Assembly (NCBI GenBank): GCA_902785275.1
Contig: CACZYB010000002.1
Coordinates: 1 to 64,000, forward strand
DNA length: 64,000 nucleotides
Direction of reading: 5' to 3'
From: an uncultured Pseudomonadota bacterium
GTDB taxonomy: Bacteria; Pseudomonadota; Alphaproteobacteria; Rs-D84; CACZYB01
Shown: positions 922 through 56,220 of the stretch, piece after piece
Layout: every line of letters starts with the position of its first letter
Numbering within the stretch: the first letter of the stretch is position 1
The notes under the pieces: model-generated
Database searches by the model: none
Seen by the model: only the letters and a program-made list of their open reading frames with translations
What the model was told of the DNA's origin: nothing
Position numbers and translations under genes: made by a program

Positions 922-3876
922 TTAACATCCCTCTTTTATTAACTCCAATATTGTTTCCTGATCTGTGTATGGAATATTCTTTGTACCAAAAGTTACATAG
1001 TCCTCGTGTCCCTTTCCGGCAACCAAAATCACATCATTTTCTTTTGAAATTTCCATTGCTTTTTTTATCGCATCACGACGACCAGTCTTTATTTCAATCG
1101 CTTCTGGACAATATTTTAAAATATCGTTACGGATTTTTTGTGGATCCTCACCCCTTGGCGAATCATCAGTCAAAATAGAAACATCCGCGTACTTATGTGT
1201 TACTGTTCCAAGCTCGAACCTACGGGTGTTTGCCTCATAAATATCACCGCAAGTACTGAACACATTGATAATCCTGCCACCTTCTTTTAACATAGGGCGA
1301 AGGGTTTTAAGAGTATTTTCCAATGCTTCTCCCTTATAAGCAAAATCGACATAAATGCTTGCGCCGGATTTTGTCTTTCCCATATATTCAAGACGACCAA
1401 GGGCGTTTCTTACTTGTGAAAGAAGTGGTATTGCCTGTTCCCAATTTGGTGTTGTCGCAATAACCATACCCAATGCGCAAAGGAGGTTGTTAAGCTGGAA
1501 TGAACCAAGGATTTTTAAATCTAAGTGATACTTTTTACCAAAGATTTCAACATCGGCAACTTGACCTTCCAAACTTGTTGTTTGGTTGATGATTTTAAGT
1601 TCGGTTCCCTTTCTACCATAAGAGAAAACCTTTACACCACGGCTATCGCAAATATCTTTTAAGTATTGATACTCTGGCACATCAGCATTCAAAACTGCGG
1701 TTCCGTTTTTATCAAGGTTTTCACGGAAAAGTTTTGACTTTGATTTAAGGTATGCGTCATAGCTTCCATAAAATTCAAGATGGTCGGTTCCAAGGTTTGT
1801 AAATCCAGCCGCAGAAATCTTTATATTTTCCATACGAAGCTGATCAAGGCCATGACTTGATAACTCAATTGCACCATTTTCAACACCATACTTTTCTTTG
1901 AAGTATTTAAGGAACTTATACGCCTCACCATTACCAGGTGTTGTGTGGTCGGCATCACTGAACTTTACAATAGATTTTCGGCTGTAAACATTTTCTGCGA
2001 TAATACCAATTGTTCCAATACTTATTGTTGGAAGTGAAAGCAAGCCCCAAATTTGGCGTGTGAAATCAACAACCGAAGATTTACCACTGGTTCCTGTTAT
2101 CGCACAAATTGTTTCTGGCTGTTTTTTATCATAGAATGTAAACACCAAATCGGCCAAAGCCTTTCTTGTATTTTCAGTTCTTATAACAACAATATTTTTT
2201 TCAGAGATAAGAGCCTTTGTTTTTTCATCAAATTCGTATGATGGTTCAATAACAACAGCCTTTGCCCCCTTTGTTATTGCATCGAATGAGTAATTAGCAC
2301 CGTTCTGTGCAAAACCCTTTATACCAACAAAAATACTTCCATCAATAATAGTTTTTGAATCGCATGATACAAGGTGTATAGGAGTATCGGTTGCACCTTC
2401 TGTATCATATCCGGCTTCTTTCAAAAGAGTATTCAAAGGTTTTGATGAAAGCTGTAATTTCTTACGAATAAACTCTTTATCCTTTTCATACATTGTACCA
2501 CAAATGATGATTGAATCCCAATCTCTGGATGTATCAATAATTTCATTTATTGCATCGTAACGATTCGGAATAACCCTTGCTTTTGGACAATATTTTACCA
2601 AAGTTTTTCTGATATTTTCAGGATCTTCGGTTCTTGGATTATCATCAACGATAACAACTGTATCGGCATATTGATTTAAAACCTTTCCCATTTCGATACG
2701 GCGAATATCCGGTCTGTCGCCACTGCAACCTGCTATACAAATAAGGTTGTGTTTCACATAAGGACGAAACTCTGTCAAAAGCTTTTTAAGTCCGTCACCA
2801 TTATGACCGAAATCAACATAAATTTTTGCACCATTAGGTGTTGTCGCAACATATTCGATACGTCCCTTTTCATTCTTTATACTTGAAACAAATGGAATAA
2901 CCTTTTCCCATTCCTTATATGAAGAAATAAACATTCCAAGAGCGCACATAAAATTATATACCTGGAACTTTGTAACAAGGTTTAATGTTAAATCGTAAAT
3001 CTTATCAAATATTGATAAAGTAATTTCTTGCTTGTCTTGAACAATTTCATATTTCTTAAGACATATATCAGCATTTTCACTTTCACCATAGGTGATGACA
3101 TTTACACCACGACCTTTGCATACATCAAAAACGGTTTGACCTCTTTCATCATCAATATTTATAACCGCAGTACCGTTTTTATCAAGAAGTTCAGAAAACA
3201 AACGAAGCTTTGCATTGAAATAATCATCAACAGTTTTGTGATAGTCTAAATGATCATTCGAAATATTTGTAAAGCCAGCAGTTATAATCTTTACACTGTC
3301 GGCACGATGTTGTTCTATACCATGACTGGAAGTTTCAATCGCAACATTTTTCACACCTGATTGTGTAAGGCTATCCAAATTTTTGTGCAAATCAATCGCA
3401 TCCGGAGTAGTCAAAGTTTTTCCACCAACACCATCTGATGTGTGAATACCAACTGTACCAATAGATGCAGAATTGATATTAACAAATTCCCACATCTGGC
3501 GTACGAAATTTACAACCGAGCTTTTACCATTTGTACCAGTTACCGCACAAACAAAATCTGGTTGTAATGGATAAAAAGTACTTGCGATAACAGATTCTAC
3601 CAAACGAATATTATCAACGAAAATAAATGGAACATTTTTATAGTTTTCGGTGTTCACACATTCTTTGTTTTCCTTATCTGTTAAGATTGCAACGGCACCA
3701 TTTTTTATTGCCATATCAATAAAGTCCGCACCATTAACCTTTGTTCCCTTTATTGCAATAAAAAGACTTCCATCAATAACCTTTGTGGAATTATTCTCAA
3801 CAGATTTTATTTCTAAATCCAAATTTTTGTTTTCAATATCGTATGAAATATTTTCTAATAATTTAGCAAGTAACAT
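922..3876 (-). CDS. murE: Tandem MurE-MurE Mur ligase fusion (984 aa)
   Basis: Two complete MurE modules: GTNGKSS/TTP/ETSSHG/DHLDYH/DDNPR and GTSGKSS/TTP/ELSSHG/DHLEFY/DDSPR/AGKGHE. Confidence 0.85.
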   Translation of the reverse strand: MLLAKLLENISYDIENKNLDLEIKSVENNSTKVIDGSLFIAIKGTKVNGADFIDMAIKNGAVAILTDKENKECVNTENYKNVPFIFVDNIRLVESVIASTFYPLQPDFVCAVTGTNGKSSVVNFVRQMWEFVNINSASIGTVGIHTSDGVGGKTLTTPDAIDLHKNLDSLTQSGVKNVAIETSSHGIEQHRADSVKIITAGFTNISNDHLDYHKTVDDYFNAKLRLFSELLDKNGTAVINIDDERGQTVFDVCKGRGVNVITYGESENADICLKKYEIVQDKQEITLSIFDKIYDLTLNLVTKFQVYNFMCALGMFISSYKEWEKVIPFVSSIKNEKGRIEYVATTPNGAKIYVDFGHNGDGLKKLLTEFRPYVKHNLICIAGCSGDRPDIRRIEMGKVLNQYADTVVIVDDNPRTEDPENIRKTLVKYCPKARVIPNRYDAINEIIDTSRDWDSIIICGTMYEKDKEFIRKKLQLSSKPLNTLLKEAGYDTEGATDTPIHLVSCDSKTIIDGSIFVGIKGFAQNGANYSFDAITKGAKAVVIEPSYEFDEKTKALISEKNIVVIRTENTRKALADLVFTFYDKKQPETICAITGTSGKSSVVDFTRQIWGLLSLPTISIGTIGIIAENVYSRKSIVKFSDADHTTPGNGEAYKFLKYFKEKYGVENGAIELSSHGLDQLRMENIKISAAGFTNLGTDHLEFYGSYDAYLKSKSKLFRENLDKNGTAVLNADVPEYQYLKDICDSRGVKVFSYGRKGTELKIINQTTSLEGQVADVEIFGKKYHLDLKILGSFQLNNLLCALGMVIATTPNWEQAIPLLSQVRNALGRLEYMGKTKSGASIYVDFAYKGEALENTLKTLRPMLKEGGRIINVFSTCGDIYEANTRRFELGTVTHKYADVSILTDDSPRGEDPQKIRNDILKYCPEAIEIKTGRRDAIKKAMEISKENDVILVAGKGHEDYVTFGTKNIPYTDQETILELIKEGC

Positions 3877-4005
3877 TTATCTTATCCCTTCATATTAATA
3901 CCATAGTATTTTATAGGAAAAAATATAACTAATCAATAGAAAGTTTTTCTTGTATATTTATTGAAAAAAATGTAAAATCAAACCTTGAAAAAAGGGGTTA
4001 TTATT

Positions 4006-5184
4006 ATGAAAAATTTTGAAAATTATGATGTAATCAGAGTTTTTGATGAAAAAGCTTTTGATGATAATGTAAAAAAGGCAAAAAAAATTTTTGGCTCAAA
4101 GCTTGGGGTTGTAATAAAATCTAATTCTTATGGTATAGGTATTGAAAAAACTTTGCCAATTTTTGAAAAGAATAAAATTTCAAATTTTTTCTGTCAGGAT
4201 ATTATTGAGGCATTAAATGCAAAATCGATTATTTCCAACCCTGATGCAAATGTATATACCTTTGCCGGCGTACAAAAAGGTCAGGAAAAAACATTTGCAG
4301 AAAATAAAATTATTCCAATTTGTATAAATCTTGATCAAATCAAAAATTATAACGAAGTACTTAAAAAATTAAAGAAAACCGCAAAAATCGGTATACATTT
4401 TGATACAGGTATGAACCGTACCGGTCTTTCATTAGTTGAGGTAGAGGAGCTTTCAAAAAATTTTAAGACATTAACTTCAAACCTTGATGTCGTTTTGTAT
4501 ATAAGTCACCTTCACAGCTCTTATACAAAAAAAGATAGGGCGAACGATGCACAACTTGCATGTTTCAAAAAGATGACTTCTATGCTTCCAAAGGCAAAAT
4601 TAAGCCTTTCTGCAACTGGTGGTTCGTTCCGTCTTCCATTAGATTATCATTTTGATTTACTAAGGGTAGGTTACGGTATCTATGGTGTTCTTCGTGAAAT
4701 GAAACCTGTTATTTCTATATATGCAAAAATTTTGCAAATTCGTGATGTATGTAAGGGGGCATCTATTGGTTATTTCGGTGGATACATGGCTCCTAAAAAT
4801 ATGAAAGTTGCCATTTTAAATATTGGTTATAAGGATGGTTATTCAAGAAGCTTAAGCCATACAAATAAATGGAAAGATAAGATTCGTGCAATGCTTAAAA
4901 GTGGTGCAAACTTTGCAACATCTTATATGGTAATTGATGGAAAGTATAAATGTCCAGTTGTTGGTATTATTTCCATGAATAATACAATAATTGATGTTTC
5001 CAATGTCCCAGAAAATATTTTGAAAAAATCTTTGTGGGCAGAAGTTATTGGTAAAAATGCAAATCTTATGGATTTTCGTGAAGCTAATGGTTTTATTCCA
5101 TGCGATTTGTTGACATCACTTTTGCAACAAAATCCAAATGCAGTTGATATGGATACAAAAGAATTTCAAAAGCTTAAAATTTAA
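4006..5184 (+). CDS. alr: Alanine racemase family PLP enzyme (divergent)
   Basis: VIKSNSYGIG (PLP Lys), HFDTGMNRTG, SIGYFG (catalytic Tyr), IGYKDGY; ATG 4006 follows AAGGGG. Confidence 0.75.
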   Translation: MKNFENYDVIRVFDEKAFDDNVKKAKKIFGSKLGVVIKSNSYGIGIEKTLPIFEKNKISNFFCQDIIEALNAKSIISNPDANVYTFAGVQKGQEKTFAENKIIPICINLDQIKNYNEVLKKLKKTAKIGIHFDTGMNRTGLSLVEVEELSKNFKTLTSNLDVVLYISHLHSSYTKKDRANDAQLACFKKMTSMLPKAKLSLSATGGSFRLPLDYHFDLLRVGYGIYGVLREMKPVISIYAKILQIRDVCKGASIGYFGGYMAPKNMKVAILNIGYKDGYSRSLSHTNKWKDKIRAMLKSGANFATSYMVIDGKYKCPVVGIISMNNTIIDVSNVPENILKKSLWAEVIGKNANLMDFREANGFIPCDLLTSLLQQNPNAVDMDTKEFQKLKI

Positions 5185-19630: not shown

Positions 19631-20161
19631 TTATCTTTCTTTTGATGGTTTATACAAATGACGTTTTGCTTTTGGATTTGAATATATATCAATAAATTTT
19701 TTTCTTTCTTCTAATTGAAGCGCGTCCTTTACGGCCTGATTTCTCATGTGATCAACTATATAAAGTAGATGATCGCCAGATTCGTTTCTTACATCAACAT
19801 TTGCACCATATGCAACCAAAGCTTTTATCGCAGCAACACTTTCCAAAACAGTAGCTACTAATAAAGGTGTATCGCCATCACTGTTTGTTATTTCTTTTTT
19901 TGCACCTTTTTGAATAAGAAACTTTACTGCTTCGGCATTATTTCTTGCAGCGGCATAGTGTAAGAAAGTCCATCCTAATTCATCTGCCATATTTATATTT
20001 TTGATTGCACCAGAATAAAAAGCTTTTTCAAACAATGATAAATCAGTTAAATCAGTACGTGCCGAATTTGAAAACGAAGTATAAGAAGGAATCAAAGAAA
20101 CCAAAGATCTGAAACTGATTCTTTCACCTGTGCTTGTTTCTGGCATATCAACATAATTCAT
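19631..20161 (-). CDS. Ankyrin repeat protein
   Basis: GWTFLHYAA...LIQKGA, GDTPLLVA...LVAYGANVD. Confidence 0.85.
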   Translation of the reverse strand: MNYVDMPETSTGERISFRSLVSLIPSYTSFSNSARTDLTDLSLFEKAFYSGAIKNINMADELGWTFLHYAAARNNAEAVKFLIQKGAKKEITNSDGDTPLLVATVLESVAAIKALVAYGANVDVRNESGDHLLYIVDHMRNQAVKDALQLEERKKFIDIYSNPKAKRHLYKPSKER

Positions 20162-22894: not shown

Positions 22895-24445
22895 TTGCAA
22901 ATGTTGGTAAAGTGTGATGCAAACTGTGATGCACAAATAAAATTTAAACCCCATTTATGGTTGAGAAATGGTGTTTTTTATTGTAGAATGGAATTACCAA
23001 GAAAAAACAATAAAAGAAGGTATTGTAGATATTCTTTATATACTACAAATTATTATGAGGCATTATCTAAGATGGTTGAACTTAATGATTTTAATGACAA
23101 GTTTAATAAATTGTGTCAGTTATATTCCCAAATAAAAGTTATTCCTAAGTATAGAAATCGATCAATGCCATCAGGATTTACGGGTATTATGGTTAATATT
23201 CCTGATGAATTATTTTTATCAAAGGATAATGACCCAAAGACAATTATTGATTTTATGAACCTATTAAATGAAGTAAATCAAAATATTGGTAAATACAATG
23301 TTCAAAAGGAAGTTGTCGATAGATTAAAATCAATGGAATACAAATATGAATTATGTAAAAAATCACTTAATCCTGAATTGTTGGCTCAAATACAGAAAAA
23401 TATTATGGTTGCAGAGCCTCCTAAGCATACTCTTCAATATATTTTGGATTCAATGCTTTTGAAAGCTCAAAATGGAGAGTCTGAAACTAAACGTAAAACT
23501 AATTTTTTAACAACTATATTTGAAAACTTAAATTTATCATTAAGTGATGATTACTCAAAGTTTCATGATGCAGATAATATTCAAAAAATTTCAAAGGATA
23601 TTTTAGCTCAAAAAGATGTTAAAAACGATAATAAACGTCAAAAACTTAGATATATAAAAGAATTTGTAAATTTTGCTTGTAAACTTGAACCTGATTTTTA
23701 TAAAGACAATATACTTATATCCTTACCAAATATTGAAAAGACAAAGAGAAGTGAAAGACAACCTCATTTGCCATATAGTGAAGCTCAACTTAAGGAAATA
23801 TTCAATCCAGAACATACATTTTTTAATGATGAACCTGATATGTTTTGGATTTGTATGATTGCTTTATTTACAGGAGCAAGAAGAAATGCTGCAACAACTA
23901 TTCAATATAAAAATGTTATATTTAAAGATAATTTGTGGTGTATACATTTTTGTGAAGATACAGATGCTGAGGTTAATATAAAACACTTGAAAAATGAAGC
24001 AACAGAGAGAATTGTACCTATACATAAACAGCTTTTAGATTTAGGTTTTGTTGATTATGTTAATCGTAAAAAAGCAAAATTAAATGCAAAAAATGATGAT
24101 TTTATTTTTCCAAAATGTAAAACATCTGGAGGTCAGTATAATAACAAATATATACAAAGATATTTGTTTGAGTTTTTGCAAACAATAGGCGTTAAAGATA
24201 TAAATCATGATTTTCACTCATTCCGTAAAAATGCAAGTTTAGCAATGCAATCTGCTGGTTTGATAAATTCAATAATAAATGCAATTATTGGCTGGGAAGG
24301 TGAAGGAACTATGGAACAATCTTACTCAAACTATGACTTGAAAAAAATAAACGAAGAGTTGAATAAGTTTAGTTATGATTTCCTTAAACCTGAGTTTATT
24401 AAGTGGAAGAAGATTATGAAAACTAAACCTGAGTTGAAGAAGTAA
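22895..24445 (+). CDS. Tyrosine integrase with DUF6538-like N-terminus
   Basis: HLWLRNGVFYCRMELP N-terminus; TGARR, KNEATER, HSFRK, IGW, Y catalytic residues; start uncertain. Confidence 0.9.
   Translation: MQMLVKCDANCDAQIKFKPHLWLRNGVFYCRMELPRKNNKRRYCRYSLYTTNYYEALSKMVELNDFNDKFNKLCQLYSQIKVIPKYRNRSMPSGFTGIMVNIPDELFLSKDNDPKTIIDFMNLLNEVNQNIGKYNVQKEVVDRLKSMEYKYELCKKSLNPELLAQIQKNIMVAEPPKHTLQYILDSMLLKAQNGESETKRKTNFLTTIFENLNLSLSDDYSKFHDADNIQKISKDILAQKDVKNDNKRQKLRYIKEFVNFACKLEPDFYKDNILISLPNIEKTKRSERQPHLPYSEAQLKEIFNPEHTFFNDEPDMFWICMIALFTGARRNAATTIQYKNVIFKDNLWCIHFCEDTDAEVNIKHLKNEATERIVPIHKQLLDLGFVDYVNRKKAKLNAKNDDFIFPKCKTSGGQYNNKYIQRYLFEFLQTIGVKDINHDFHSFRKNASLAMQSAGLINSIINAIIGWEGEGTMEQSYSNYDLKKINEELNKFSYDFLKPEFIKWKKIMKTKPELKK
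22909..22933 (+). repeat. Left arm-type tandem repeat
   Basis: AAAGTGTGATGC-AAACTGTGATGC-A; matches 42967-42991. Confidence 0.7.
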
Positions 24446-26223: not shown

Positions 26224-28575
26224 ATGGTTAAAGTTGATTATAATAAATTATCCGAAGAGGATACTAAACGTATTGAAATTACACCAAGCATTATTGAAAG
26301 AGGTTGGGATAATAAGACTCAAATAAGGCAAGAAGTTAGCTTTACTAAAGGTAGAATAATGGTTAGGGGTAAGGAAGTTAAACGTGGAGAGCCTAAAAGG
26401 GCTGATTATGTATTATTCTTTAAACCAAATTTACCTTTGGCTATAGTTGAAGCTAAATCTGGATACAAAACTGTAAGTGCAGGTATTCAACAAGGAATTG
26501 ATTATGCTCAAACTTTAAATATACCATTTGTTTATAGCTCTAACGGTAAAGGATTTTATGAGCACGATTTGTTAACTGGAGCAGAAAGAGAAATTGGAAT
26601 TAATGATTTTCCTACACCTTTTGAATTATGGTCTCGTTATAAGAAAATACAAAATATAACGGATGAACAGGAAGAAAAAATATTTGCTCCATATTATGAT
26701 GATGGTTCAGGTCGTTCTCCTCGTTATTATCAAAGAATAGCTATAAATCGAACTATTGAAGCAATTGCAAAAGGACAAAATCGTATATTGTTAGTTATGG
26801 CTACAGGTACAGGTAAGACATATACAGCTTTTCAGATTATTTGGAGATTATGGAAATCAAAACAAAAAAGAAGAATATTGTTTTTAGCTGATAGAAACAT
26901 TTTGGTAGATCAAACAAAAAATCAGGATTTCGCACCATTTGGTAAAGCTATGACAAAGATTACAGATAGGACTATTGATAAATCATATGAAATTTATCTT
27001 TCATTATATCAAGCTGTTACAGGTACTGAAGAAGAAAAGAATATATATAAACAATTTTCTCCTGATTTCTTTGATTTAATTGTTGTTGATGAGTGTCATA
27101 GAGGATCTGCTGCAGAAGATTCAGCTTGGCATGATATATTAACTTATTTTAGTTCTGCTACACAAATTGGAATGACAGCAACTCCAAAAGAAGAAACTAA
27201 TATTTCAACATCTACATATTTTGGAGAACCTCTTTATACATACTCTCTTAAACAAGGTATTGAAGACGGTTTCTTGGCTCCGTATAAAGTTTTAAAAATT
27301 GGGTTGAATAGAGATTTAATGGGATGGAGACCAGAATTAGGAAAACTAGATAAGTATGGAAATGAAATTGAAGATAGACAATATAGTCAAACTGATTTTG
27401 ATAGAACATTAGTTCTCGAAAAACGTACAAAAGAAGTTGCAAAAAGAGTTATGCAATTCCAACGAGAGAATGATCCATATGCAAAAACTATTGTTTTCTG
27501 TGAGAATATTGATCATGCAGATAGAATGAGAGCAGCATTATGTCAAGAAGCTCAAGAATTTATTAAAGAAAATCCAAAATATATCATGAAAATCACAGGT
27601 GATGATATGTTGGGAAAAGCAGAGTTGGATAATTTTATTGATTTAGATAGTCGTTATCCTGTAATTGCAGTTACTTCTCGTTTAATGTCTACTGGTGTTG
27701 ATGCTAAGACTTGTAAGTTAATTGTGCTTGATAGAAGTGTTGGATCAATGACTGAATTTAAGCAAATTATTGGTAGAGGTACTCGTGTTAATGAAGAGTA
27801 TGGAAAATATTATTTTACTATCATGGATTTTCGAAATGCTACAAAACAATTTGCTAATCCAGAATTTGATGGTTATCCAACAGAGGTTAAATTAGAACTT
27901 GGAGCTGATGTCGATACAGAAGATGTCGAAGAAGGTTATATAGACGATGTAGAGTTTGAAGAAGGAATAGATGATACATACGATTGGGATAATGCTGAAG
28001 TTGTAGATGAACATAAAGTTAAAAAATATTATGTTGATGATGTTGAAGTTGAAGTAGTCGATGTAAATGTTCAATATCTTGATGAAAATGGTAAATTAAT
28101 TGCTGAAAATATAAAGTCGTTTTGTCGTAATTTTATGTTAAAACGTTTCCATGAAGCGAAGAATTTTATTGATTTATGGAAATCTTCAGCAAATAAAACA
28201 AAATTGATTTCAGTATTAAGTGAAACAGGTTTGTTTATAAATGAACTTCGTCGTGAGTATGACAAAGAATATGATGTATATGATATTATTTTAAAGAATA
28301 CGTATGATATAGAGCCTTTAACAAGAACTCAAAGAGCAGAAAAAGCGAATAAAATTCTTGAAGAATTAAATGGAGATTGTAAAAATATTTTCACTGATGT
28401 TATAAAAAAATATATTGAAATTGGTATTTCTGCTATAGAAGATCGTAATACTTTACGAATTGAACCTTTTATTTCTCAATATGGAACAGGTGTTGAAATA
28501 ATAAAGAAGATTGGTGGCAATGAAAAGTATATCGAAATTACAGATAAAATAAAAAATGCAATATATGAGGATTAA
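26224..28575 (+). CDS. hsdR: Type I restriction enzyme R subunit (EcoAI-like)
   Basis: ADYVL..IVEAK nuclease, MATGTGKT, DECHRG, MTATP, QIIGRGTR. Confidence 0.94.
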   Translation: MVKVDYNKLSEEDTKRIEITPSIIERGWDNKTQIRQEVSFTKGRIMVRGKEVKRGEPKRADYVLFFKPNLPLAIVEAKSGYKTVSAGIQQGIDYAQTLNIPFVYSSNGKGFYEHDLLTGAEREIGINDFPTPFELWSRYKKIQNITDEQEEKIFAPYYDDGSGRSPRYYQRIAINRTIEAIAKGQNRILLVMATGTGKTYTAFQIIWRLWKSKQKRRILFLADRNILVDQTKNQDFAPFGKAMTKITDRTIDKSYEIYLSLYQAVTGTEEEKNIYKQFSPDFFDLIVVDECHRGSAAEDSAWHDILTYFSSATQIGMTATPKEETNISTSTYFGEPLYTYSLKQGIEDGFLAPYKVLKIGLNRDLMGWRPELGKLDKYGNEIEDRQYSQTDFDRTLVLEKRTKEVAKRVMQFQRENDPYAKTIVFCENIDHADRMRAALCQEAQEFIKENPKYIMKITGDDMLGKAELDNFIDLDSRYPVIAVTSRLMSTGVDAKTCKLIVLDRSVGSMTEFKQIIGRGTRVNEEYGKYYFTIMDFRNATKQFANPEFDGYPTEVKLELGADVDTEDVEEGYIDDVEFEEGIDDTYDWDNAEVVDEHKVKKYYVDDVEVEVVDVNVQYLDENGKLIAENIKSFCRNFMLKRFHEAKNFIDLWKSSANKTKLISVLSETGLFINELRREYDKEYDVYDIILKNTYDIEPLTRTQRAEKANKILEELNGDCKNIFTDVIKKYIEIGISAIEDRNTLRIEPFISQYGTGVEIIKKIGGNEKYIEITDKIKNAIYED

Positions 28576-28577
28576 AT

Positions 28578-30032
28578 ATGTCAAATTTATCATCAATTAT
28601 TAAAACTATTCAAAATATTATGCGTAAGGATTCCGGTGTTGACGGAGATGCTCAGCGTATAGGACAACTTTCATGGATGTTGTTTTTAAAAATATTTTCT
28701 GATAGTGAAGAAAATTGGAGTTTTTATGAAGAAGATTATGAATCTCCAATACCAGAAGAGTTCAAATGGTCTGCATGGGCAAGTGATGATGAAGGTATTA
28801 CAGGAGATGAACTTCTTGACTTTATTAATAATAAATTATTTCCTACACTTAAAGAGTTACCTGCAGAAAGTAAAAGAGCATTTATGATACGCTCAATTTT
28901 TGAAGATGCTATCAATTATATGAAATCAGGACAGTTATTGCGTCAAGTTATTAATAAGATTAACGAAATAGATTTTAACTCATCAGAAGATAGACATGTT
29001 TTTGGTGATATTTATGAGCAAATATTAAAGGGATTACAATCTGCTGGTAATGCAGGTGAATTTTATACACCAAGAGCAGTAACTCAGTTTATGACTGAAA
29101 TGGTTGATCCTCAATTAGGAGAGAGTGTTTTAGATCCAGCATGTGGTACAGGCGGCTTTTTGGCTTGTGCAGTTAATTATATGAAAAAACAAGTTAAAAA
29201 TCCTGCTGATGAACAAAAGCTCCAAAGTGGAATTATTGGTTGGGAAAAAAAACAACTTCCTCATATTTTATGTACAACTAATATGATTTTGCACGGTCTT
29301 GATGTTCCAAATATACAACATTTAATTGCTGGAAGTTTGGCAAAACCTTTAAACAGTTATACTAAGGAAGATAAAGTTGATGTTATTTTAACAAATCCTC
29401 CATTTGGTGGTATTGAAGAAGATGGAATTGAAAATAATTTTCCAGCTGATGTTCGCACAAAGGAAACGGCTGACTTGTTTTTAGTTCTGATTATGAAGTT
29501 GTTAAAAGATGGTGGTAAGTGTGCAATGGTGTTACCTGATGGTGCATTATTCGGAGAAGGTGTAAAAACTCGTATAAAGGAAAAACTTTTAACTGAATGT
29601 AATTTACATACAATTATTCGTCTTCCAAAATCTGTGTTTGCTCCATATACATCAATTAATACAAACTTGTTGTTTTTTGAAAAAGGAAAACCAACAAAAA
29701 CAACTTGGTTTTATCGTTTAGATATGCCAGAGGGAGTTAAAGCATTTAATAAAACAAATCCTATGATGGTGGAACATTTTGCCCCTGTTAGAGAATGGTG
29801 GAATGATAGACACGAGATTCAACAAGATGGTTTTGATAAAGCAAAACAGTATACTTTTGAAGAATTAAAAGCTCGTAACTTTAATCTTGATTTATGTGGT
29901 TATCCAACGATTGAAGAAGAAATTTTAGAGCCAAAGGAACTTATTGATCAATATCAAACAAAGCGTAAAGAACTTAATGCTAATATAGATAGTATATTGG
30001 CAGAAATTAATAAAAAATTAGGGATTGATTAA
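28578..30032 (+). CDS. hsdM: Type I methyltransferase M subunit
   Basis: GEFYTPR, DPACGTGGFL, NPPFGG. Confidence 0.95.
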   Translation: MSNLSSIIKTIQNIMRKDSGVDGDAQRIGQLSWMLFLKIFSDSEENWSFYEEDYESPIPEEFKWSAWASDDEGITGDELLDFINNKLFPTLKELPAESKRAFMIRSIFEDAINYMKSGQLLRQVINKINEIDFNSSEDRHVFGDIYEQILKGLQSAGNAGEFYTPRAVTQFMTEMVDPQLGESVLDPACGTGGFLACAVNYMKKQVKNPADEQKLQSGIIGWEKKQLPHILCTTNMILHGLDVPNIQHLIAGSLAKPLNSYTKEDKVDVILTNPPFGGIEEDGIENNFPADVRTKETADLFLVLIMKLLKDGGKCAMVLPDGALFGEGVKTRIKEKLLTECNLHTIIRLPKSVFAPYTSINTNLLFFEKGKPTKTTWFYRLDMPEGVKAFNKTNPMMVEHFAPVREWWNDRHEIQQDGFDKAKQYTFEELKARNFNLDLCGYPTIEEEILEPKELIDQYQTKRKELNANIDSILAEINKKLGID

Positions 30033-30033
30033 T

Positions 30034-30861
30034 ATGGTAGGTTGTGAAGAATTATTGATAAATTGGTCTAATGCTTTTGTTACATTTACCTCTGTTTTTT
30101 TAGGTGCTTTATTTGCTTATAAATTTGGTTTAAAGTTAGAAAAACTTAAATTTAAGCGACAAATGCGAGGTGATTTTTGTACTTTAGTATCTCAAATGTG
30201 GTTAAATTTAGATGAGATGCTTGAGTATAAAAGGAATATTTTAGATAATATAAAAATAGCCTACGAAAAGAAGAATATAGAAGCTATATCAACAATTATT
30301 CGTGGTCCAATGGTATCATTTGAGTTTAATATAGATAAATATATATTTTTAAATGATTGTAATAGGTGCTTTATTCCAGAATTAAATATTGTTCACTCAA
30401 ACTACGAAAATTTAAAATTTCTTTGTGTTAATTATACAAAGCGTTTATTTGAAGCTAAACCACAATATATTGAAGGTAATCAAAATGTTTGGGAAGAAAT
30501 GAATAAAACATTTTTATCTATTTATGATATTTATAGTAAGTTATGTATTCGTTTACATTATTTAAATAAACATTTAGGTGATTGTTATAAACGTTTTTTC
30601 AATATTAATTATTACGATATTGCGGAAGATGAAAATGAAGCAAGAAATAAAATAGAAAATTATATTCCTGGAGCATTGCAGGATGAAAATTTTATTAAGA
30701 TGTCAGAATATTTTGATAATTATTGGGCTCCAATTCGTACTTTTTATGAGGATATTAAATATCACTATAGGAAATCTAAATACTATTTTAAATGGATAAA
30801 AATTTACTTTTTAGGTTGTCATAAAACAAAAAATAAAACTAAGAGCAAGGAAAGTAAGTAA
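30034..30861 (+). CDS. Hypothetical membrane-anchored protein inside the hsd operon
   Basis: N-terminal hydrophobic helix; abuts hsdM stop and hsdS start. Confidence 0.7.
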   Translation: MVGCEELLINWSNAFVTFTSVFLGALFAYKFGLKLEKLKFKRQMRGDFCTLVSQMWLNLDEMLEYKRNILDNIKIAYEKKNIEAISTIIRGPMVSFEFNIDKYIFLNDCNRCFIPELNIVHSNYENLKFLCVNYTKRLFEAKPQYIEGNQNVWEEMNKTFLSIYDIYSKLCIRLHYLNKHLGDCYKRFFNINYYDIAEDENEARNKIENYIPGALQDENFIKMSEYFDNYWAPIRTFYEDIKYHYRKSKYYFKWIKIYFLGCHKTKNKTKSKESK

Positions 30862-30862
30862 T

Positions 30863-32308
30863 ATGAAAGCACAAGATTTAAAAAACTCAATATTACAATT
30901 GGCAATTCAGGGGAAATTGGTTCCTCAAGATCCTAATGATGAATCTGCAGAAGTTTTATATGCTAAAATCCAAGCCGAAAAACAAAAGCTCATCAAAGAA
31001 GGTAAAATCAAAAAAGATAAACCTCTCCCACCAATCACCAATGATGAAGTACCTTTTTCAATCCCTCCCTCCTGGAAATGGGTAAGGCACAACGATCTCT
31101 TCGAAATTTCAGGGGGGAGTCAACCTCCAAAATCAAAATTTATACCAAAACCAAAGGAAGGATATATTCGCCTCTACCAAATTCGAGATTATGGAAATAA
31201 TCCACAACCAGTATATATTCCCCAAGATACGGCTACAAAAATTTCACAAAACGGAGATATATTACTAGCACGATACGGGGCATCAGTAGGAAAAATATTT
31301 TATGCTGAATATGGGGCTTATAATGTTGCCATGGCAAAAGTCATTGCTTTATTTGATGATGAATTAATATTTAAACCATTCTTATTTTTTTATTATCATT
31401 CTAGTCTCTATCAAAAATTGGTAAAGAGTAATTCCAGGAGTGCTCAAGCTGGTTTTAACAAAGAGGATCTAGAAAGCTTACTGTTACCCCTCCCACCATT
31501 GGCTGAACAAAAAAGAATTGTGGCGAAGATCGAGGAGTTGGAGCCGTTGGTTAAGCAATATGATAAAGCGGAAACTGAATTATCGGTTTTAAACGATAGT
31601 TTTCCTGAACAGTTGAAAAAATCAATTTTGCAATATGCTATTCAAGGTAAATTGGTTCCGCAAGATGCTAACGATGAGCCAGCAGAAGTTTTATATGCAA
31701 ATATTCAAGCAGAAAAGCAAAAGTTGGTTAAAGAAGGTAAAATTAAGAAGGATAAACCTTTACCACCAATCACCGACGACGAAATACCATTTGAAATTCC
31801 ATCAACTTGGAAATGGGTGCGATTGGGGGATTGTTTTGATGTTAGAGATGGCACACACGATACTCCTAAATATGTTAGTAATGGCGTTCCTTTGGTAACA
31901 AGCAAAAATTTATGTAATGGTATATTGGATTTATCTAATGTTAAATTTATAAGTTTGGAAGATGCTAAAAAAATAGATGAACGTTCAAAAGTAGATAGAA
32001 ATGATATTTTATTTGCAATGATTGGCACAATAGGTAATCCAGTAATAGTTAACGTTGAACCTAATTTTTGTATAAAGAATATGGCCTTAATTAAGTATAA
32101 TAAATTTATGGATACTAATTATATACTATATTTGTTAATCAAAGCACAAGATGATATGAAAAAAGAGGCACAAGGAGCTGTGCAATCTTTTGTCTCTCTT
32201 TCATTTATTCGAAATTTTCCGATACCACTTCCTCCACTAGCTGAACAACATCGTATCGTCGCTAAAATTGAAGAATTAATGCAATATTGTGACAAATTGA
32301 AAATATAA
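30863..32308 (+). CDS. hsdS: Type I specificity subunit, two TRDs
   Basis: Repeated LKxSILQxAIQGKLVPQD...IPxxWKWVR and PLPPLAEQxRIVAKIEEL. Confidence 0.94.
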   Translation: MKAQDLKNSILQLAIQGKLVPQDPNDESAEVLYAKIQAEKQKLIKEGKIKKDKPLPPITNDEVPFSIPPSWKWVRHNDLFEISGGSQPPKSKFIPKPKEGYIRLYQIRDYGNNPQPVYIPQDTATKISQNGDILLARYGASVGKIFYAEYGAYNVAMAKVIALFDDELIFKPFLFFYYHSSLYQKLVKSNSRSAQAGFNKEDLESLLLPLPPLAEQKRIVAKIEELEPLVKQYDKAETELSVLNDSFPEQLKKSILQYAIQGKLVPQDANDEPAEVLYANIQAEKQKLVKEGKIKKDKPLPPITDDEIPFEIPSTWKWVRLGDCFDVRDGTHDTPKYVSNGVPLVTSKNLCNGILDLSNVKFISLEDAKKIDERSKVDRNDILFAMIGTIGNPVIVNVEPNFCIKNMALIKYNKFMDTNYILYLLIKAQDDMKKEAQGAVQSFVSLSFIRNFPIPLPPLAEQHRIVAKIEELMQYCDKLKI

Positions 32309-52962: not shown

Positions 52963-54552
52963 ATGTTTATAACTTTGATTTTCTTGGCAACTATTTTCTT
53001 TGTATATAAAAGGACTTTATTTTACAGTCTTTTTTTTCAACAAGAACGTTACGAAACAAAATCTTTTTTAAGGTTTATATTTAAAAAATTTCAACTTATA
53101 GATAAAAGATTATCTGTAATTTTATTTTTCTATACAATATTTGCGACAGGTACAAAAATATATAATCTAGATATGAGTATTATTTCGGGATTGTTTTGTA
53201 TTTTTGCTTTGTTAACACCAAACCCACGTTCCGGTTTCGCAAAGAAAAAACTTGATATTACAAAAAGATTGAAAAGAATATTAGAAGTTTCTTTCGCTCT
53301 TGATGCAACTTTTTTGATTGCAATTTTGTTTTATATCCACAAACTTAATGTAAAAAATATTTACTGTTTCTGTGAAGTTATGGGATATATGATTTTGTTT
53401 GTACAAAGTCTTCCATTTATGTTGATTGTATCAAATTTGATTCTTTCACCAATAGAAATTTTTGTAAAAAAGCATTATGTATCAGATGCAAAATCAATCA
53501 TTAATAAATATAAGCCAATAGTTATTGGTATTACTGGTTCATTCGGTAAAACAAGTACAAAAAATATTTTGAATCATATCTTGTCATCCGTTGCATCATC
53601 AATGACTACTGCAAGAAGTATAAATACTTTAATGGGTATAACACAGGTAATTCGTGAAGAATTAAAACCATCATACAAATATTTTATTGTTGAGGTTGGT
53701 ACTTCGAAAAAGGGAAGAATAAGAAAAATTTGCAACCTTATTAAACCACAATATGGTATTTTAACAGCGATTGGTTCTGCTCATTTCGAAAGCTTTAAAT
53801 CAAAGGATGCAATCGCACGTGAAAAATTTGATTTGATAAAATCTGTTGTTGCAAACGATGGTTCTTATATTATAAATCCATTTTTGGTAGATGAAAAATA
53901 TATCAAAAAATTCCATGCGGACAAAACTGATTTTTCAACATCCGATGTTACCGTTACATCAAAGGGTATAAGTTTCACACTTAAATACAATAAACAAAAG
54001 TACGATATTTCAGCCCCTATATTTGGTACACATCAGGCGCAAAATATTTCCCTTACATTTATTATGGCACTAAAGCTTGGTATCCCTGCTGATACTATAA
54101 TTGCAGCCCTTAAAACCCTTCCTCAAACAGAACATAGATTAGAGGTAAAAGATCAGGGTGGTATGATAGTAATTGACGATGCGTTTAATTCAAACGTTGA
54201 AGGTTTCAAATCTGCACTTTCCACACTTCACATTATTGCAAAGGAAAAGAAGGGCCGTGCAATTTTGATTACCCCAGGTATGGTAGAGCTTGGCCGCGAA
54301 CACGATTCTCAACACAAAGAAGTCGCAAACGTTGCCCTTGAAACTTGTGATATTGTGATTGCCGTTGTACCAGAAAGAATAAAGGCATTTGTCTCAAAGT
54401 TCACTGCGGAAAAATCTGTTAATCAAGAAATCATTCTTGTAAACACTCTTGCCGAAGCACGCCAGTGGCTTTCTGCAAATTCGAAAAAGAATGATGTCGT
54501 TCTTTACGAAAACGATCTTCCTGATGTATTTGAAGCAAAAATAAACATATAG
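52963..54552 (+). CDS. murF: MurF-family ligase with N-terminal TM helices
   Basis: GITGSFGKTSTK, IDDAFNSN, TPGMVELG, LYENDLPD; hydrophobic first ~160 aa. Confidence 0.8.
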   Translation: MFITLIFLATIFFVYKRTLFYSLFFQQERYETKSFLRFIFKKFQLIDKRLSVILFFYTIFATGTKIYNLDMSIISGLFCIFALLTPNPRSGFAKKKLDITKRLKRILEVSFALDATFLIAILFYIHKLNVKNIYCFCEVMGYMILFVQSLPFMLIVSNLILSPIEIFVKKHYVSDAKSIINKYKPIVIGITGSFGKTSTKNILNHILSSVASSMTTARSINTLMGITQVIREELKPSYKYFIVEVGTSKKGRIRKICNLIKPQYGILTAIGSAHFESFKSKDAIAREKFDLIKSVVANDGSYIINPFLVDEKYIKKFHADKTDFSTSDVTVTSKGISFTLKYNKQKYDISAPIFGTHQAQNISLTFIMALKLGIPADTIIAALKTLPQTEHRLEVKDQGGMIVIDDAFNSNVEGFKSALSTLHIIAKEKKGRAILITPGMVELGREHDSQHKEVANVALETCDIVIAVVPERIKAFVSKFTAEKSVNQEIILVNTLAEARQWLSANSKKNDVVLYENDLPDVFEAKINI

Positions 54553-54621: not shown

Positions 54622-56220
54622 TTAAAGTAGGTTCAAAATCTTTTCACGACCGATACTTCTTATAAATCCAGCAAGCTTTGGACCCAAATCACGGTTTATA
54701 AGTATTTGGTAAAGCTTTTTGTAAATATCTGGTGTCAAACCAAATTCTGTTACCATATTGCCGATTTTGTTTTGAAGTTCTTTATCTGTCTGATAGCTAT
54801 CCCAATTTTGTGAAAGTTCATTACGTAAAGCACTAACAAACTTTGCTTCAACATCGGAAAGCTCAATATCAGTACGTTTTTCCTTGTTTATAATAAACTT
54901 GAAATCTTCTGGTGCATGATTTTTAATCCAAAATACAGCACGTTCCGCACGTTCATTGAATCTTCTTTCATCACGTTCGTTTTTGATTTCAGCTTCATAG
55001 TATTTTTTAGCCTTCCCAATATCGAAATCATTTATCTGCAATATGTTGCAAAGATGTCTAAAGCTTGGTTGGAATGGCATAACTTCTGGAATTTTTCCAT
55101 CAGCATTTAGTTGTGAAAGTTCGTAAATACGTTTTGCATTTGCACGTTTTTCATCTTTCACTTGCTCCAAACCATAAACGGTTCTTTCCATTCTATCAAA
55201 GTCTTCGTAATTCTTAAGCACATCCAAATCAAAAGCCAAATCAAAAGCAGCATTTGGTTTATAAGATGCAAAAATCCAACGAACCATTTCTGGCTCATAA
55301 ACATCAAGTATTTCTTTCAATGTGATAACATTACCCTTTGATGAAGAAATCTTTCCATTGAAACCTTTGATGCCAATATTATCATAAGCAGCATAAACCG
55401 GAGCATCCTTATTAAAAATTTCCTTTATGATAATAGATGCAGTATCTCTTGATCCACCAGCAGAGGAGTGATCACGTCCACCTGGTTCAAAATCAACCCC
55501 TTCATAAGACCAACGCATAGGCCAATCGATTCTCCAAGGAAGTTTAAGACGTTTTGAAGTTTTCAAATCTTCTTTACCCTCAAATCCACAAAGTTCACAC
55601 TTATAGGTAATAGTTTTTGTTTCTTTATCATAGTTTGTAATGGAAATTCTATCCCTGTTACAGTGTTGACAGTATGTAAGAAGAGGGGCCCAATCTTCAT
55701 CCAATTCACTTGTTCTAAATTGTTGAAGTATTTCGCCGACCTTGTCCTTATTATCCATAATGTGGATAATATTTTCATTATAATCACCAGCACGGTATTT
55801 TTTGTTTTGATAAATAAAATCAACATAGGTTATACCAACCCTTGGCAAATCACGTTCAAAAACCTTTTCATTATGTTCAGCATAGGAAGAGTATTCTTCG
55901 AATGGATCAGGCACATCAACAATAGGTTGGAATAAAAGCTCCTTTAATTCCTCTTGTTTAGGCATATTTGCAGGAACCTTTCTGAAAGTATCATAATCAT
56001 CCCAAGAATAGATGAAATGAACCTTCTTACCCCTTTGCATCAAAGCACGAGCAACCAAATCAACAGTGATAACTTCTCTGAAATTACCAAAGTGAACCAC
56101 ACCAGATGGAGTAATACCACTTGCAACAGTGTATGATTCCTTATCGCCTTTTTCTCTTATAACCTTTTCGGCGATTTGATCCGCCCAATGAAAAATTTGT
56201 TTTTGATTATTTTCTGACAT
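54622..56220 (-). CDS. lysS: Class I lysyl-tRNA synthetase
   Basis: ASGITPSGVVHFGN, KLPWRIDWPMRW, EPGGRDH, KISSSKG. Confidence 0.93.
   Translation of the reverse strand: MSENNQKQIFHWADQIAEKVIREKGDKESYTVASGITPSGVVHFGNFREVITVDLVARALMQRGKKVHFIYSWDDYDTFRKVPANMPKQEELKELLFQPIVDVPDPFEEYSSYAEHNEKVFERDLPRVGITYVDFIYQNKKYRAGDYNENIIHIMDNKDKVGEILQQFRTSELDEDWAPLLTYCQHCNRDRISITNYDKETKTITYKCELCGFEGKEDLKTSKRLKLPWRIDWPMRWSYEGVDFEPGGRDHSSAGGSRDTASIIIKEIFNKDAPVYAAYDNIGIKGFNGKISSSKGNVITLKEILDVYEPEMVRWIFASYKPNAAFDLAFDLDVLKNYEDFDRMERTVYGLEQVKDEKRANAKRIYELSQLNADGKIPEVMPFQPSFRHLCNILQINDFDIGKAKKYYEAEIKNERDERRFNERAERAVFWIKNHAPEDFKFIINKEKRTDIELSDVEAKFVSALRNELSQNWDSYQTDKELQNKIGNMVTEFGLTPDIYKKLYQILINRDLGPKLAGFIRSIGREKILNLL

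Follow-up and report, generated by a model that had tools for sequence, protein, structure and literature searches.

An atypical Alr-family racemase encoded head-to-head with a tandem MurE in an alphaproteobacterial lineage

Alanine racemase (Alr) and the MurE ligase catalyse well-known reactions in building the cell wall, both of them drug targets, and the rules for their specificity come from few model enzymes. Here we describe an Alr-family gene located at positions 4006..5184 (plus strand) of a 64,000-nucleotide stretch of alphaproteobacterial DNA, hereafter the window, which lies on contig 2 of its source genome (G000; 1.05 Mb, 95.7% complete). The gene stands head-to-head with a gene for a tandem MurE. 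We favour, with modest confidence, a reading in which the protein is the lineage's housekeeping alanine racemase, has a loosened pocket and is divergently co-transcribed with the tandem MurE.

Pocket positions are numbered throughout according to the Alr of Geobacillus stearothermophilus. The available portion of PMC3485190 assigns catalytic or cofactor roles to Lys39, Tyr265′, Arg219, Arg136, His166 and Tyr43, and lines the middle layer of the entryway with the equivalents of Arg290′, Arg309′ and Asp171. Tyr354 and Tyr265′ form an inner gate that limits Alr to alanine, and at the gate VanT has Asn, BsrV has Pro, Bar has Ala and Lyr has Thr (PMC4542195 and PMC3485190, both available in part). 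According to the first of these texts, replacement of the gate residue in Bacillus Alr (Y354N) raised serine activity 62-fold with alanine activity kept, and VanT also retains alanine activity (PMC4542195). In Lyr and Bar, an Asn after the Arg136 equivalent stands in for the carbamylated Lys (PMC3485190, same portion). Excerpts of PMC10288493 describe the Mycobacterium tuberculosis Alr variant D322N, equivalent to Asp313 of the Geobacillus enzyme, as viable with a 240-fold lower affinity for D-cycloserine, and Asn at this position as natural in broad-spectrum racemases (Bsr).

Within the sources available in part, the closest printed parallel for coupling a Mur ligase to Alr is the MurF′-Alr chimera of Phocaeicola dorei (PMC13726279), in which the Mur domain is stated to raise substrate affinity and catalytic efficiency. 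Here, likewise, an Alr would be coupled to a Mur-ligase-type module. As far as the excerpts go, however, coupling in the chimera, which occurs in Bacteroidota and Chloroflexota, comes about by fusion of the gene to a MurF-like domain, whereas the present system is a divergent pair with a tandem MurE and occurs in Alphaproteobacteria. The MurE of Thermotoga maritima reportedly adds both L-Lys and D-Lys (cited in PMC3829189), and would show that a MurE can draw on a D-amino acid supplied by a racemase; that enzyme is single and has no known racemase pairing.

The open reading frame (ORF) of the racemase as read runs from a TTG at 3985 to 5184 on the plus strand. Its likely start is the ATG at 4006, which follows a ribosome-binding site, AAAAGGGG, at approximately 3991-3998 and is kept in 11/11 aligned same-genus intergenic regions. 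The resulting protein of 392 amino acids (aa) matches Ala_racemase_N (PF01168, 6e-36) and Ala_racemase_C (PF00842, 2.4e-22), and has the N-terminal barrel domain and C-terminal beta domain of Alr-family enzymes, which bind pyridoxal 5′-phosphate (PLP) in fold type III. No extra domain appeared in the Pfam scan, and no hydrophobic signal-like segment was seen by eye at the N-terminus of the translation. An AlphaFold2 (AF2) model had a predicted local distance difference test score (pLDDT) of 85.1 and a predicted template modelling score (pTM) of 0.84, and the top 50 matches listed by Foldseek for this model were all Alr-family racemases. A preliminary description of this DNA had quoted the motifs IKSNSYGIG, SIGYFG, SHLHSS, SATGG, GIISMN and IPCDLL, every one of which is found in the translation. 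It had also placed the two starts about 130 bp apart; the measured distance is 129 bp, and the left edge given there for the racemase (3876) is the start of MurE.

The same description had noted an insertion of about 20 residues after GYSRSLS. This insertion is real: it comprises 19 aa (residues 285-303, HTNKWKDKIRAMLKSGANF, encoded at 4858..4914 on the plus strand) and begins three residues past Arg281, the equivalent of the entryway residue Arg290′. It was assessed in an alignment of 116 racemase rows, comprising 26 clade rows (two of them probably duplicates of two loci rows), 82 ordinary alphaproteobacterial (alpha-type) rows and 8 others. The ordinary rows came from a pattern-driven scan that supplied the best 80 loci of at least 537 relatives and are a biased sample; as a counterpart we used the 25 best matches in an even class-wide sample of 400 genomes. 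The loop past GYxR is 29 residues long in 26/26 clade rows, compared with 9-21 residues in the 82 ordinary rows (10 residues in 44 of them) and 8-17 in the class sample. Within the insertion Asn287 and Gly300 are invariant, as are the flanking Leu283 and Ser284, and Arg294 (23/26 rows), Phe303 and Tyr307 are nearly so. A short helix is predicted at residues 288-296, with low pLDDT.

In a FastTree phylogeny of 111 rows, for which six partial or duplicate rows and four identical loci were dropped, the 25 insertion-bearing rows formed one clade (support 98). Its sister is a single long-branched sequence, L036 (support 100), and the two together are nested in the alphaproteobacterial Alr type (support 99), apart from Escherichia coli Alr and from the Alr of family f6, which is of the canonical kind. 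A long stem (0.74 + 0.32 changes per column) leads to the clade. The sister lineage, represented by L036 and P0104, has Asn137, Asn313 and Glu354. The phylogeny called for in the preliminary description thus places the enzyme inside the alpha type and distinct from E. coli Alr, in a tree without named Bsr, VanT or Lyr sequences. A profile search of 1.84 billion representative proteins recovered the clade as five full-length clusters (P0016, P0040, P0045, P0043 and P0100; 458-666 bits); lower scores belonged to Alr-Alr tandems, to the sister type and to Alrs of the ordinary kind; P0100-P0104 were inspected among the new matches. The even sample of 400 genomes yielded no further clade member (best identity 36%), and in a scan of genome contigs with the clade alignment the ordinary alpha-type Alr dominated (at least 537 relatives), the one clade locus among the matches listed being that of the family f1 relative G017.

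Several relatives seen in these searches have unusual architectures or pockets. P0101 (970 aa) and P0102 (924 aa), from high-GC organisms, are tandem Alr-Alr fusions with two complete racemase units per chain, and both units have a loop extension of their own and a gate region lacking Tyr. These two matches of about 950 aa had been considered as possible fusions of racemase and Mur ligase, of the Rosetta-stone kind, and were rejected as such, as they contain no Mur part. A Bsr-like Asn after the Arg136 equivalent, combined with a gate Arg, is found at L138/L139/L143/L160 and L159 (genomes G363, G048, G191 and G354), and two Alr paralogues each are present in the small alphaproteobacterial genomes G048, G354 and G363. 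Judging from these sequences, specificity in the alpha-type Alr may have diversified beyond this clade.

The partner gene (922..3876, minus strand) encodes a MurE-MurE fusion of 984 aa that contains two copies of each of the three Mur ligase domains. MurE models give the highest scores for either half (for example NF001124, with 866 bits over two stretches), and both carry the P-loop and the carbamyl-Lys motif. Relative to E. coli MurE, the N-terminal half keeps DNPR and the GDR arginine and has GTMYE for GKGHE, and the C-terminal half has DSPR, has lost GDR and keeps GKGHE; GKGHE and GDR are presumably elements of the MurE pocket. The role of DNPR in MurE is described in the available part of PMC3829189. 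Across 13 full-length sequences both halves are conserved, with a mean column identity of 77% and invariant P-loops and carbamyl-Lys motifs, and the altered pocket patterns of the two halves are kept in these 13 sequences, including one from a lineage of 58.6% GC. In two species of the same genus the fusion is truncated (G006:C3:40203-42104 and G007:C2:103414-105039; loci L133 and L134; ORFs of 658 and 632 aa), with the N-terminal half reduced to a remnant of its last domain, the C-terminal half whole and the racemase still adjacent; a search of both genomes with the tandem MurE as query found no other strong MurE. It was also observed that one MurE module retains the DNPR typical of diaminopimelate (DAP) enzymes despite DapA and DapF not being found in G000 or in family f1.

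In every clade context inspected, the two genes were found together. In 16/16 relatives of family f1 that have both, the racemase and MurE(-MurE) lie head-to-head on opposite strands of the same contig, with the starts 120-132 bp apart in the 11 genomes of the same genus that were measured. When metagenome contigs were scanned with P0044, which is the most remote of the clade members and has 40% identity to the racemase studied here, two loci were obtained. In one (L114, 58.6% GC) the racemase is head-to-head, about 40 bp apart, with a tandem MurE of 982 aa that is 55% identical in both halves; in the other (L115, 55.2% GC) it lies beside the first 402 MurE residues on a 3-kb contig, which then ends. 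The neighbours in L114 encode DnaJ, a decarboxylase of the Orn/DAP/Arg type, RuvA, rubrerythrin, LpxK, an M23 peptidase and AsmA, with no division and cell wall (dcw) cluster. Out to 6 kb, no MurE ORF was found around the 79 alr loci of the ordinary alpha type (0/79; contig ends truncate some of them), and out to 1.5 kb there was none around the 25 class-sample alr loci (0/25); the sister lineage has a single MurE in its genome and none within 6 kb of alr. The pair is present in the clade and absent from its sister and from ordinary loci, which makes it a conserved unit whose origin coincides with that of the clade. The divergent two-gene unit proposed in the preliminary description is thus borne out, in family f1 and in 2/2 loci of the 55-59% GC lineage alike, and the partner of the racemase is a true tandem MurE.

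Between the two starts lies a divergent intergenic region of 129 bp (3877..4005) that contains two conserved, back-to-back, promoter-like blocks, both kept in 11/11 same-genus sequences. A putative MurE-MurE promoter on the minus strand (-35 TTGATT at 3936-3931, -10 TAAAAT at 3913-3908) was recognised by a promoter consensus scan together with conservation. The putative racemase promoter on the plus strand (TTGTAT at 3950-3955, a 17-nt spacer ending in TG, and TAAAAT at 3973-3978) is inferred from conservation; its -35 matches 3/6 consensus bases and was not listed by the consensus scan. A shared operator in the spacer was considered and set aside, as no palindrome was seen and two back-to-back promoters explain the conserved blocks.

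The catalytic core of the racemase is intact. Lys38, Tyr42, Arg138, His168, Arg220, Tyr256 and Met324 are invariant in 26/26 clade rows, and residue 275 is Tyr in 25 of them and Phe in one. Lys38 (codon 4117..4119, plus strand), the equivalent of the Schiff-base Lys39, is conserved in 26/26 clade and 82/82 ordinary rows and aligned to 3kw3, 4ecl and 4qhr; Tyr256 (codon 4771..4773, plus strand), the equivalent of the second catalytic base Tyr265′, is invariant in all covering rows. In contrast to this core, positions associated with specificity deviate from the ordinary rows. The gate position 354, which is Cys366 in the window (codon 5101..5103, plus strand, as are the two codons that follow), is Cys in 11 clade rows, Val in 6, Ala in 4, Arg in 3 and Ile in 2 (Tyr 0/26), whereas Tyr is found in 81/81 covering ordinary rows. 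Position 313 (Asn325, codon 4978..4980) is Asn in 23 and Asp in 3 clade rows, compared with Asp in 82/82 ordinary rows. Position 137 (Thr139, codon 4420..4422), which is Asn in Lyr and Bar, is Thr in 26/26 clade rows, whereas the 82 ordinary rows have Leu (72), Phe (7), Met (2) or Thr (1). Position 171, the final residue of HLACAD, is mostly Tyr or Phe in the clade (Tyr in the window's racemase) and mostly Asp in ordinary rows, and the Ala285 position is Lys in 23 clade rows and Ala in 76 ordinary rows.

The class sample changes how some of these differences are to be read. Its 25 rows have Tyr at the gate in 12, Arg in 5, His in 4 and Trp, Thr, Asn and Cys in 1 each; Asn or Thr at position 137 in 10/25; and Asp at position 313 in 24, with Cys in 1. 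Given the bias of the 82 ordinary rows and the Tyr in only 12/25 class-sample matches, loss of the gate Tyr should not be taken, on its own, as a functional change, and it was ruled out as a mark specific to the clade. His in place of the carbamylated Lys at position 129 (His131 in the racemase) is likewise no clade mark, being the rule in the alpha type (His in 55 and Gln in 26 of 82 ordinary rows). The preliminary description had listed several substrate and PLP motifs as departures from the Alr consensus: the specificity-setting positions are indeed atypical, and SATGG is not distinctive, as it occurs in 5/82 ordinary rows (AATGG in 8/82). As judged from the aligned sequences, the features specific to the clade that remain are Asn313, the 29-residue loop and the MurE-MurE neighbour; by the same alignment, the clade has jointly altered positions known for pocket widening and has a conserved entryway element in addition.

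Among solved structures the best relative is the Alr of Bartonella henselae, 3KW3 (E 8e-40 by sequence; E 1e-31 and template modelling scores of 0.77/0.84 by fold), followed by VanTG 4ECL (4.3e-19) and an Alr from Acinetobacter (9e-19); matches to Lyr, HisR and BsrV are much poorer, and the fold search gave the same order as the sequence search. The racemase and 3KW3 share the two-domain fold, the Lys/Tyr pair, an HFDTGMNR-type motif without the carbamylated Lys, SHL, and the IPxE(I/L)LTSL C-terminal helix. In 3KW3 the gate-Tyr position is His; the racemase differs from it in the 19-aa insertion after GYxRxLS, in Asn for Asp313, Thr for Leu137 and Tyr for Asp171, and in Cys at 354. From ordinary alpha-type Alr it is further set apart by the head-to-head tandem MurE.

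Resemblance to broad-spectrum and VanT racemases is partial. In common with BsrV, Bar and Lyr, as far as the available parts of their descriptions go, the enzyme has the same fold, a non-Tyr gate and Asn where Asp313 would be, and its Arg136 equivalent is followed by a polar residue. These proteins are, however, distant (4dza E 2e-12, 4beu 4.9e-10), and the polar residue is Thr, not Asn, so that the racemase carries 2/3 Bsr-type marks (Cys366 and Asn325, with Thr139 instead of Asn). By sequence and phylogeny it does not group with the broad-spectrum racemases: in a tree without named Bsr sequences it is nested in the alpha-type Alr, and it scores 54.9 bits against a cut-off of 434 with NF009879, the broad-spectrum-type model. 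On these sequence grounds the Bsr-like resemblance would be convergent. Bsr enzymes are known as periplasmic enzymes. The broad-spectrum racemase of Pseudomonas putida is described as such in the available part of PMC6034422. The catalytic domain of VanTG, the second-best solved match, similarly has its gate Tyr replaced, and has kept alanine activity and gained a second substrate. VanT differs in its gate Asn, membrane domain and van operon, the racemase having Cys366 and no extra domain, and the VanT models (NF033131, 112/460 bits; NF033132, 70/900 bits) do not place the racemase among VanT serine racemases.

The preliminary description had proposed a non-alanine substrate for the enzyme, and the gene content of the source genome speaks against this. 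The racemase is the only PF01168 protein in G000. No class-IV aminotransferase (Aminotran_4, PF01063) was found there, and the genome encodes a MurI (170.6 bits, over cut-off), a Ddl-like protein of 399 aa (G000:C1:28166-29275, locus L030:1423-2622, minus strand; 231-237 bits against cut-offs of 245.65 and 262) and a MurF-like ligase of 529 aa (window 52963-54552, plus strand; 215 bits against a cut-off of 288.6). This leaves the racemase as the one D-Ala source that can be recognised. Neither DapA nor DapF was found in G000.

Gene content was further counted over 40 relatives, G000 excluded (family f1, n = 18; f6, n = 3; f2-f5, n = 19). PF01168 is present in 16/18 f1 relatives, the misses being G008 (61% complete) and G018 (70%), in 3/3 of f6, as a canonical Alr, and in 0/19 of f2-f5; it is single-copy in 15/16 f1 relatives having it, and G017 has two. 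A Ddl-like protein (at least 208 bits) was found in 15/18 f1 relatives (not G004, G008 or G016), 3/3 of f6 and 0/19 of f2-f5, and PF01063 in 1/18 (G016), 0/3 and 0/19, respectively. DapF was found in 0/18, 2/3 and 0/19, and DapA in 0/18, 0/3 and 2/19. As a control, five alphaproteobacterial genomes of the class sample (98-100% complete) that encode an Alr without the gate Tyr were inspected. This Alr is the sole PF01168 in 4/5 of them (G363 has two), and Ddl is present in 5/5, above cut-off in four; the Alr match of one, G262, has one in-frame TAA. With 13/25 class relatives lacking Tyr, and a sole Alr beside Ddl in 4/5 genomes checked, gate loss is a poor guide to a non-alanine substrate. Judging from these genes, it is recurrent in sole-copy racemases of small alphaproteobacterial genomes that presumably supply D-Ala.

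Some further properties of these genes were noted. The Ddl-like gene adjoins the C-terminal part of alaS, and its same-genus orthologue ORFs are 398-416 aa long, compared with 297-325 aa in other genera; this length, with a score just under the cut-offs, suggests lineage-specific insertions in the predicted protein. The MurF-like ligase is under the TIGR01143 cut-off, has an N-terminal stretch of about 175 aa unmatched by the MurF profile, and adjoins a class-I lysyl-tRNA synthetase gene (54622-56220, minus strand). The second Alr-family gene of G017 (L029:1471-2556, minus strand) has a VanT-G score of 173.7, nearly as high as its TIGR00492 score, a gate Thr and Gly in place of Asp313. Immediately downstream of it is a gene for a DdpX/VanX-like D-Ala-D-Ala dipeptidase (L029:830-1474, minus strand). 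The 15 genomes of families f3-f5, which belong to the same order and are mostly 97-100% complete, are without Alr and Ddl, and only G036 has a weak MurE match, which suggests that these families have lost peptidoglycan.

Under the reading that we favour, the protein would be a single cytoplasmic, PLP-dependent alanine racemase descended from the alphaproteobacterial Alr type that has His for the carbamylated Lys. It would use a two-base mechanism with Lys38 and Tyr256′ of a homodimer, and its D-Ala product would pass through the Ddl-like and MurF-like ligases into peptidoglycan precursors. The entryway and pocket would have been rebuilt in the clade at position 354, by Asp313′ to Asn, Asp171 to Tyr/Phe and Leu137 to Thr, and by the helix-forming 19-aa insertion, changes that probably relax specificity and make the enzyme less sensitive to D-Ala analogues. 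Transcription would be divergent with MurE-MurE from the back-to-back promoters. As the two genes are inherited as a unit, this arrangement may be read as co-regulation of precursor supply. A complex prediction for the racemase with MurE residues 475-984 scored 0.00, which counts neither for nor against this reading.

Several observations weigh against a housekeeping alanine racemase. With the alr equivalog model TIGR00492 the protein scored 152.2 bits, under the cut-off of 168, and is therefore objectively atypical; with NF000792 it reached 134 bits against 384. A strict alanine racemase would pass TIGR00492 and would have the gate Tyr354, Asp313′ and the carbamylated Lys129, in place of which are Cys366, Asn325 and His131. 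The deviations at 354, 313 and 137 coincide and are all linked to specificity in print, and Asn313 and a non-Tyr354 are also traits of broad-spectrum racemases. Asn313 was found in 0/82 ordinary and 0/25 class-sample rows, and together with the conserved insertion this clade-specific residue suggests selection beyond plain alanine racemisation. Both MurE pockets are non-canonical, and with DapA and DapF found in none of the 18 f1 relatives there is no DapA route to DAP or lysine; the wall may therefore require an unusual amino acid, possibly as the position-3 residue. In addition, the second Alr-family gene of G017 passes TIGR00492 (181.8 bits), so that divided tasks are possible there, and other sources of D-Ala (moonlighting GlyA or MetC, or uptake) are possible.

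These points could be accommodated by a racemase of dual or broad specificity that makes D-Ala for Ddl as well as a second D-amino acid or DAP-like epimer, ligated by one MurE module. We regard this as a possibility to be taken seriously, though an unlikely one. As second substrates one might consider Lys/Orn or Ser, or else a diamino-dicarboxylic acid, acted on at its distal centre, and the pairing would then represent supply of substrate to the ligase. The clade rows agree with such an enzyme in their joint departures at 354 (26/26), 313 (23/26), 137 (26/26) and, mostly, 171; the same positions deviate in VanT, BsrV, Bar and Lyr, in which Asp to Asn is natural among the Bsrs according to the partial sources cited above. 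Asn137, Asn313 and Glu354 in the sister lineage point the same way, as do the clade-specific Asn313 and insertion. The gate residue itself varies within the clade (Cys/Val/Ala/Ile/Arg), however, which resembles relaxed constraint rather than recognition, and non-Tyr variants are common in the sole-copy Alrs of small alphaproteobacterial genomes with a single MurE. The partner is similarly two-sided. It originated and is inherited together with the racemase, their pairing has survived a change of neighbourhood, both of its halves are conserved with intact P-loops and altered third-residue pockets, DapA and DapF were not found in G000 or the 18 f1 relatives, and the reported addition of D-Lys by T. 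maritima MurE would be a precedent; but G006 and G007 lost most of the N-terminal MurE module and keep both the racemase and the pairing. The scores with NF009879 and NF033131 are far under cut-off, and the sequence gives no pointer to a substrate. A PLP-dependent replacement for DapF was considered separately and rejected: DapA was also not found, hence there is no internal LL-DAP to epimerise, and DapF-like epimerisation may be conceivable only for salvaged substrates.

A dedicated non-alanine racemase or epimerase that serves the double ligase only, with D-Ala coming from elsewhere, is highly improbable in our view. The low TIGR00492 score, the rebuilt entryway with its clade-specific insertion and the strict pairing with MurE-MurE would suit such an enzyme, but it would leave Ddl without a D-Ala source: the 95.7%-complete genome has Ddl-like and MurF-like proteins and no other PF01168 or PF01063, and the gene is single-copy in 15/16 relatives having it. 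Moreover VanT, Bacillus Alr Y354N and M. tuberculosis Alr D322N share substitutions with it and, in the passages available, still racemise alanine. It is scarcely credible, lastly, that the adjacency is meaningless, a frozen synteny in one family, with the sequence oddities being drift in small AT-rich genomes. All observed pairs may belong to one family-level lineage, the loop is a hot spot for insertions (9-21 residues in ordinary rows) and position 354 varies widely among small-genome relatives. Against drift, however, the pair has been kept at 40% (racemase) and 55% (MurE) identity, at 58.6% GC and in another neighbourhood, the insertion contains invariant residues, and the promoter blocks between the genes are conserved.

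The lineage's only Alr-family enzyme thus departs from the specificity rules, having no gate Tyr, an Asn313 variant and a new entryway insertion, and is inherited as a unit with a doubled MurE where DapA and DapF were not found. The racemase family is known; the clade, the insertion, the combined substitutions and the tandem-MurE pairing are new to the literature searched, which holds no description of them and in which the titles and abstracts listed gave nothing relevant on tandem or duplicated MurE. If the enzyme is a plain alanine racemase, gate residues called "strictly conserved" are dispensable in a whole alphaproteobacterial branch. If instead a second D-amino acid feeds one MurE module, the result would be an undescribed peptidoglycan chemotype in rumen or gut symbionts, made by a compact ligase/racemase pair. 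As a tentative extension, to which we give a minor share of belief, the two genes might form a device for an unconventional stem peptide in gut alphaproteobacteria that lost the DAP pathway: through its widened, Bsr-like pocket a single cytoplasmic enzyme would make D-Ala together with another D-centre, such as D-Lys/D-Orn or a DAP-like diamino acid's D-end; one of the MurE modules, whose third-residue pockets are altered in different ways, would ligate the product, and the insertion would serve substrate entry or hand-over.

In the window, the racemase stands at the end of a minus-strand dcw-type array that contains mraZ, rsmH, ftsI, mraY, murD, ftsW, murG, murC, murB and genes for an S41 peptidase and an RgpF-like protein; the usual place between ftsI and mraY is without murE and murF. 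Homologues carry the names "Rickettsiales bacterium" and "Alphaproteobacteria bacterium", and the window stretch is present in bovine and sheep gut sequencing runs. The region 22895-46259 has the look of a mobile or defence island, with an integrase-family gene (22895-24445), a type I restriction-modification system (26224-32308) and genes for DUF2130, AAA_13, DUF5906 and RhuM/Fic proteins. Finally, the window encodes an ankyrin-repeat protein (19631-20161, minus strand) and a porin-like protein of the Pom family (Protochlamydia outer membrane protein; 60351-61835, minus strand), features often found in host-associated bacteria.

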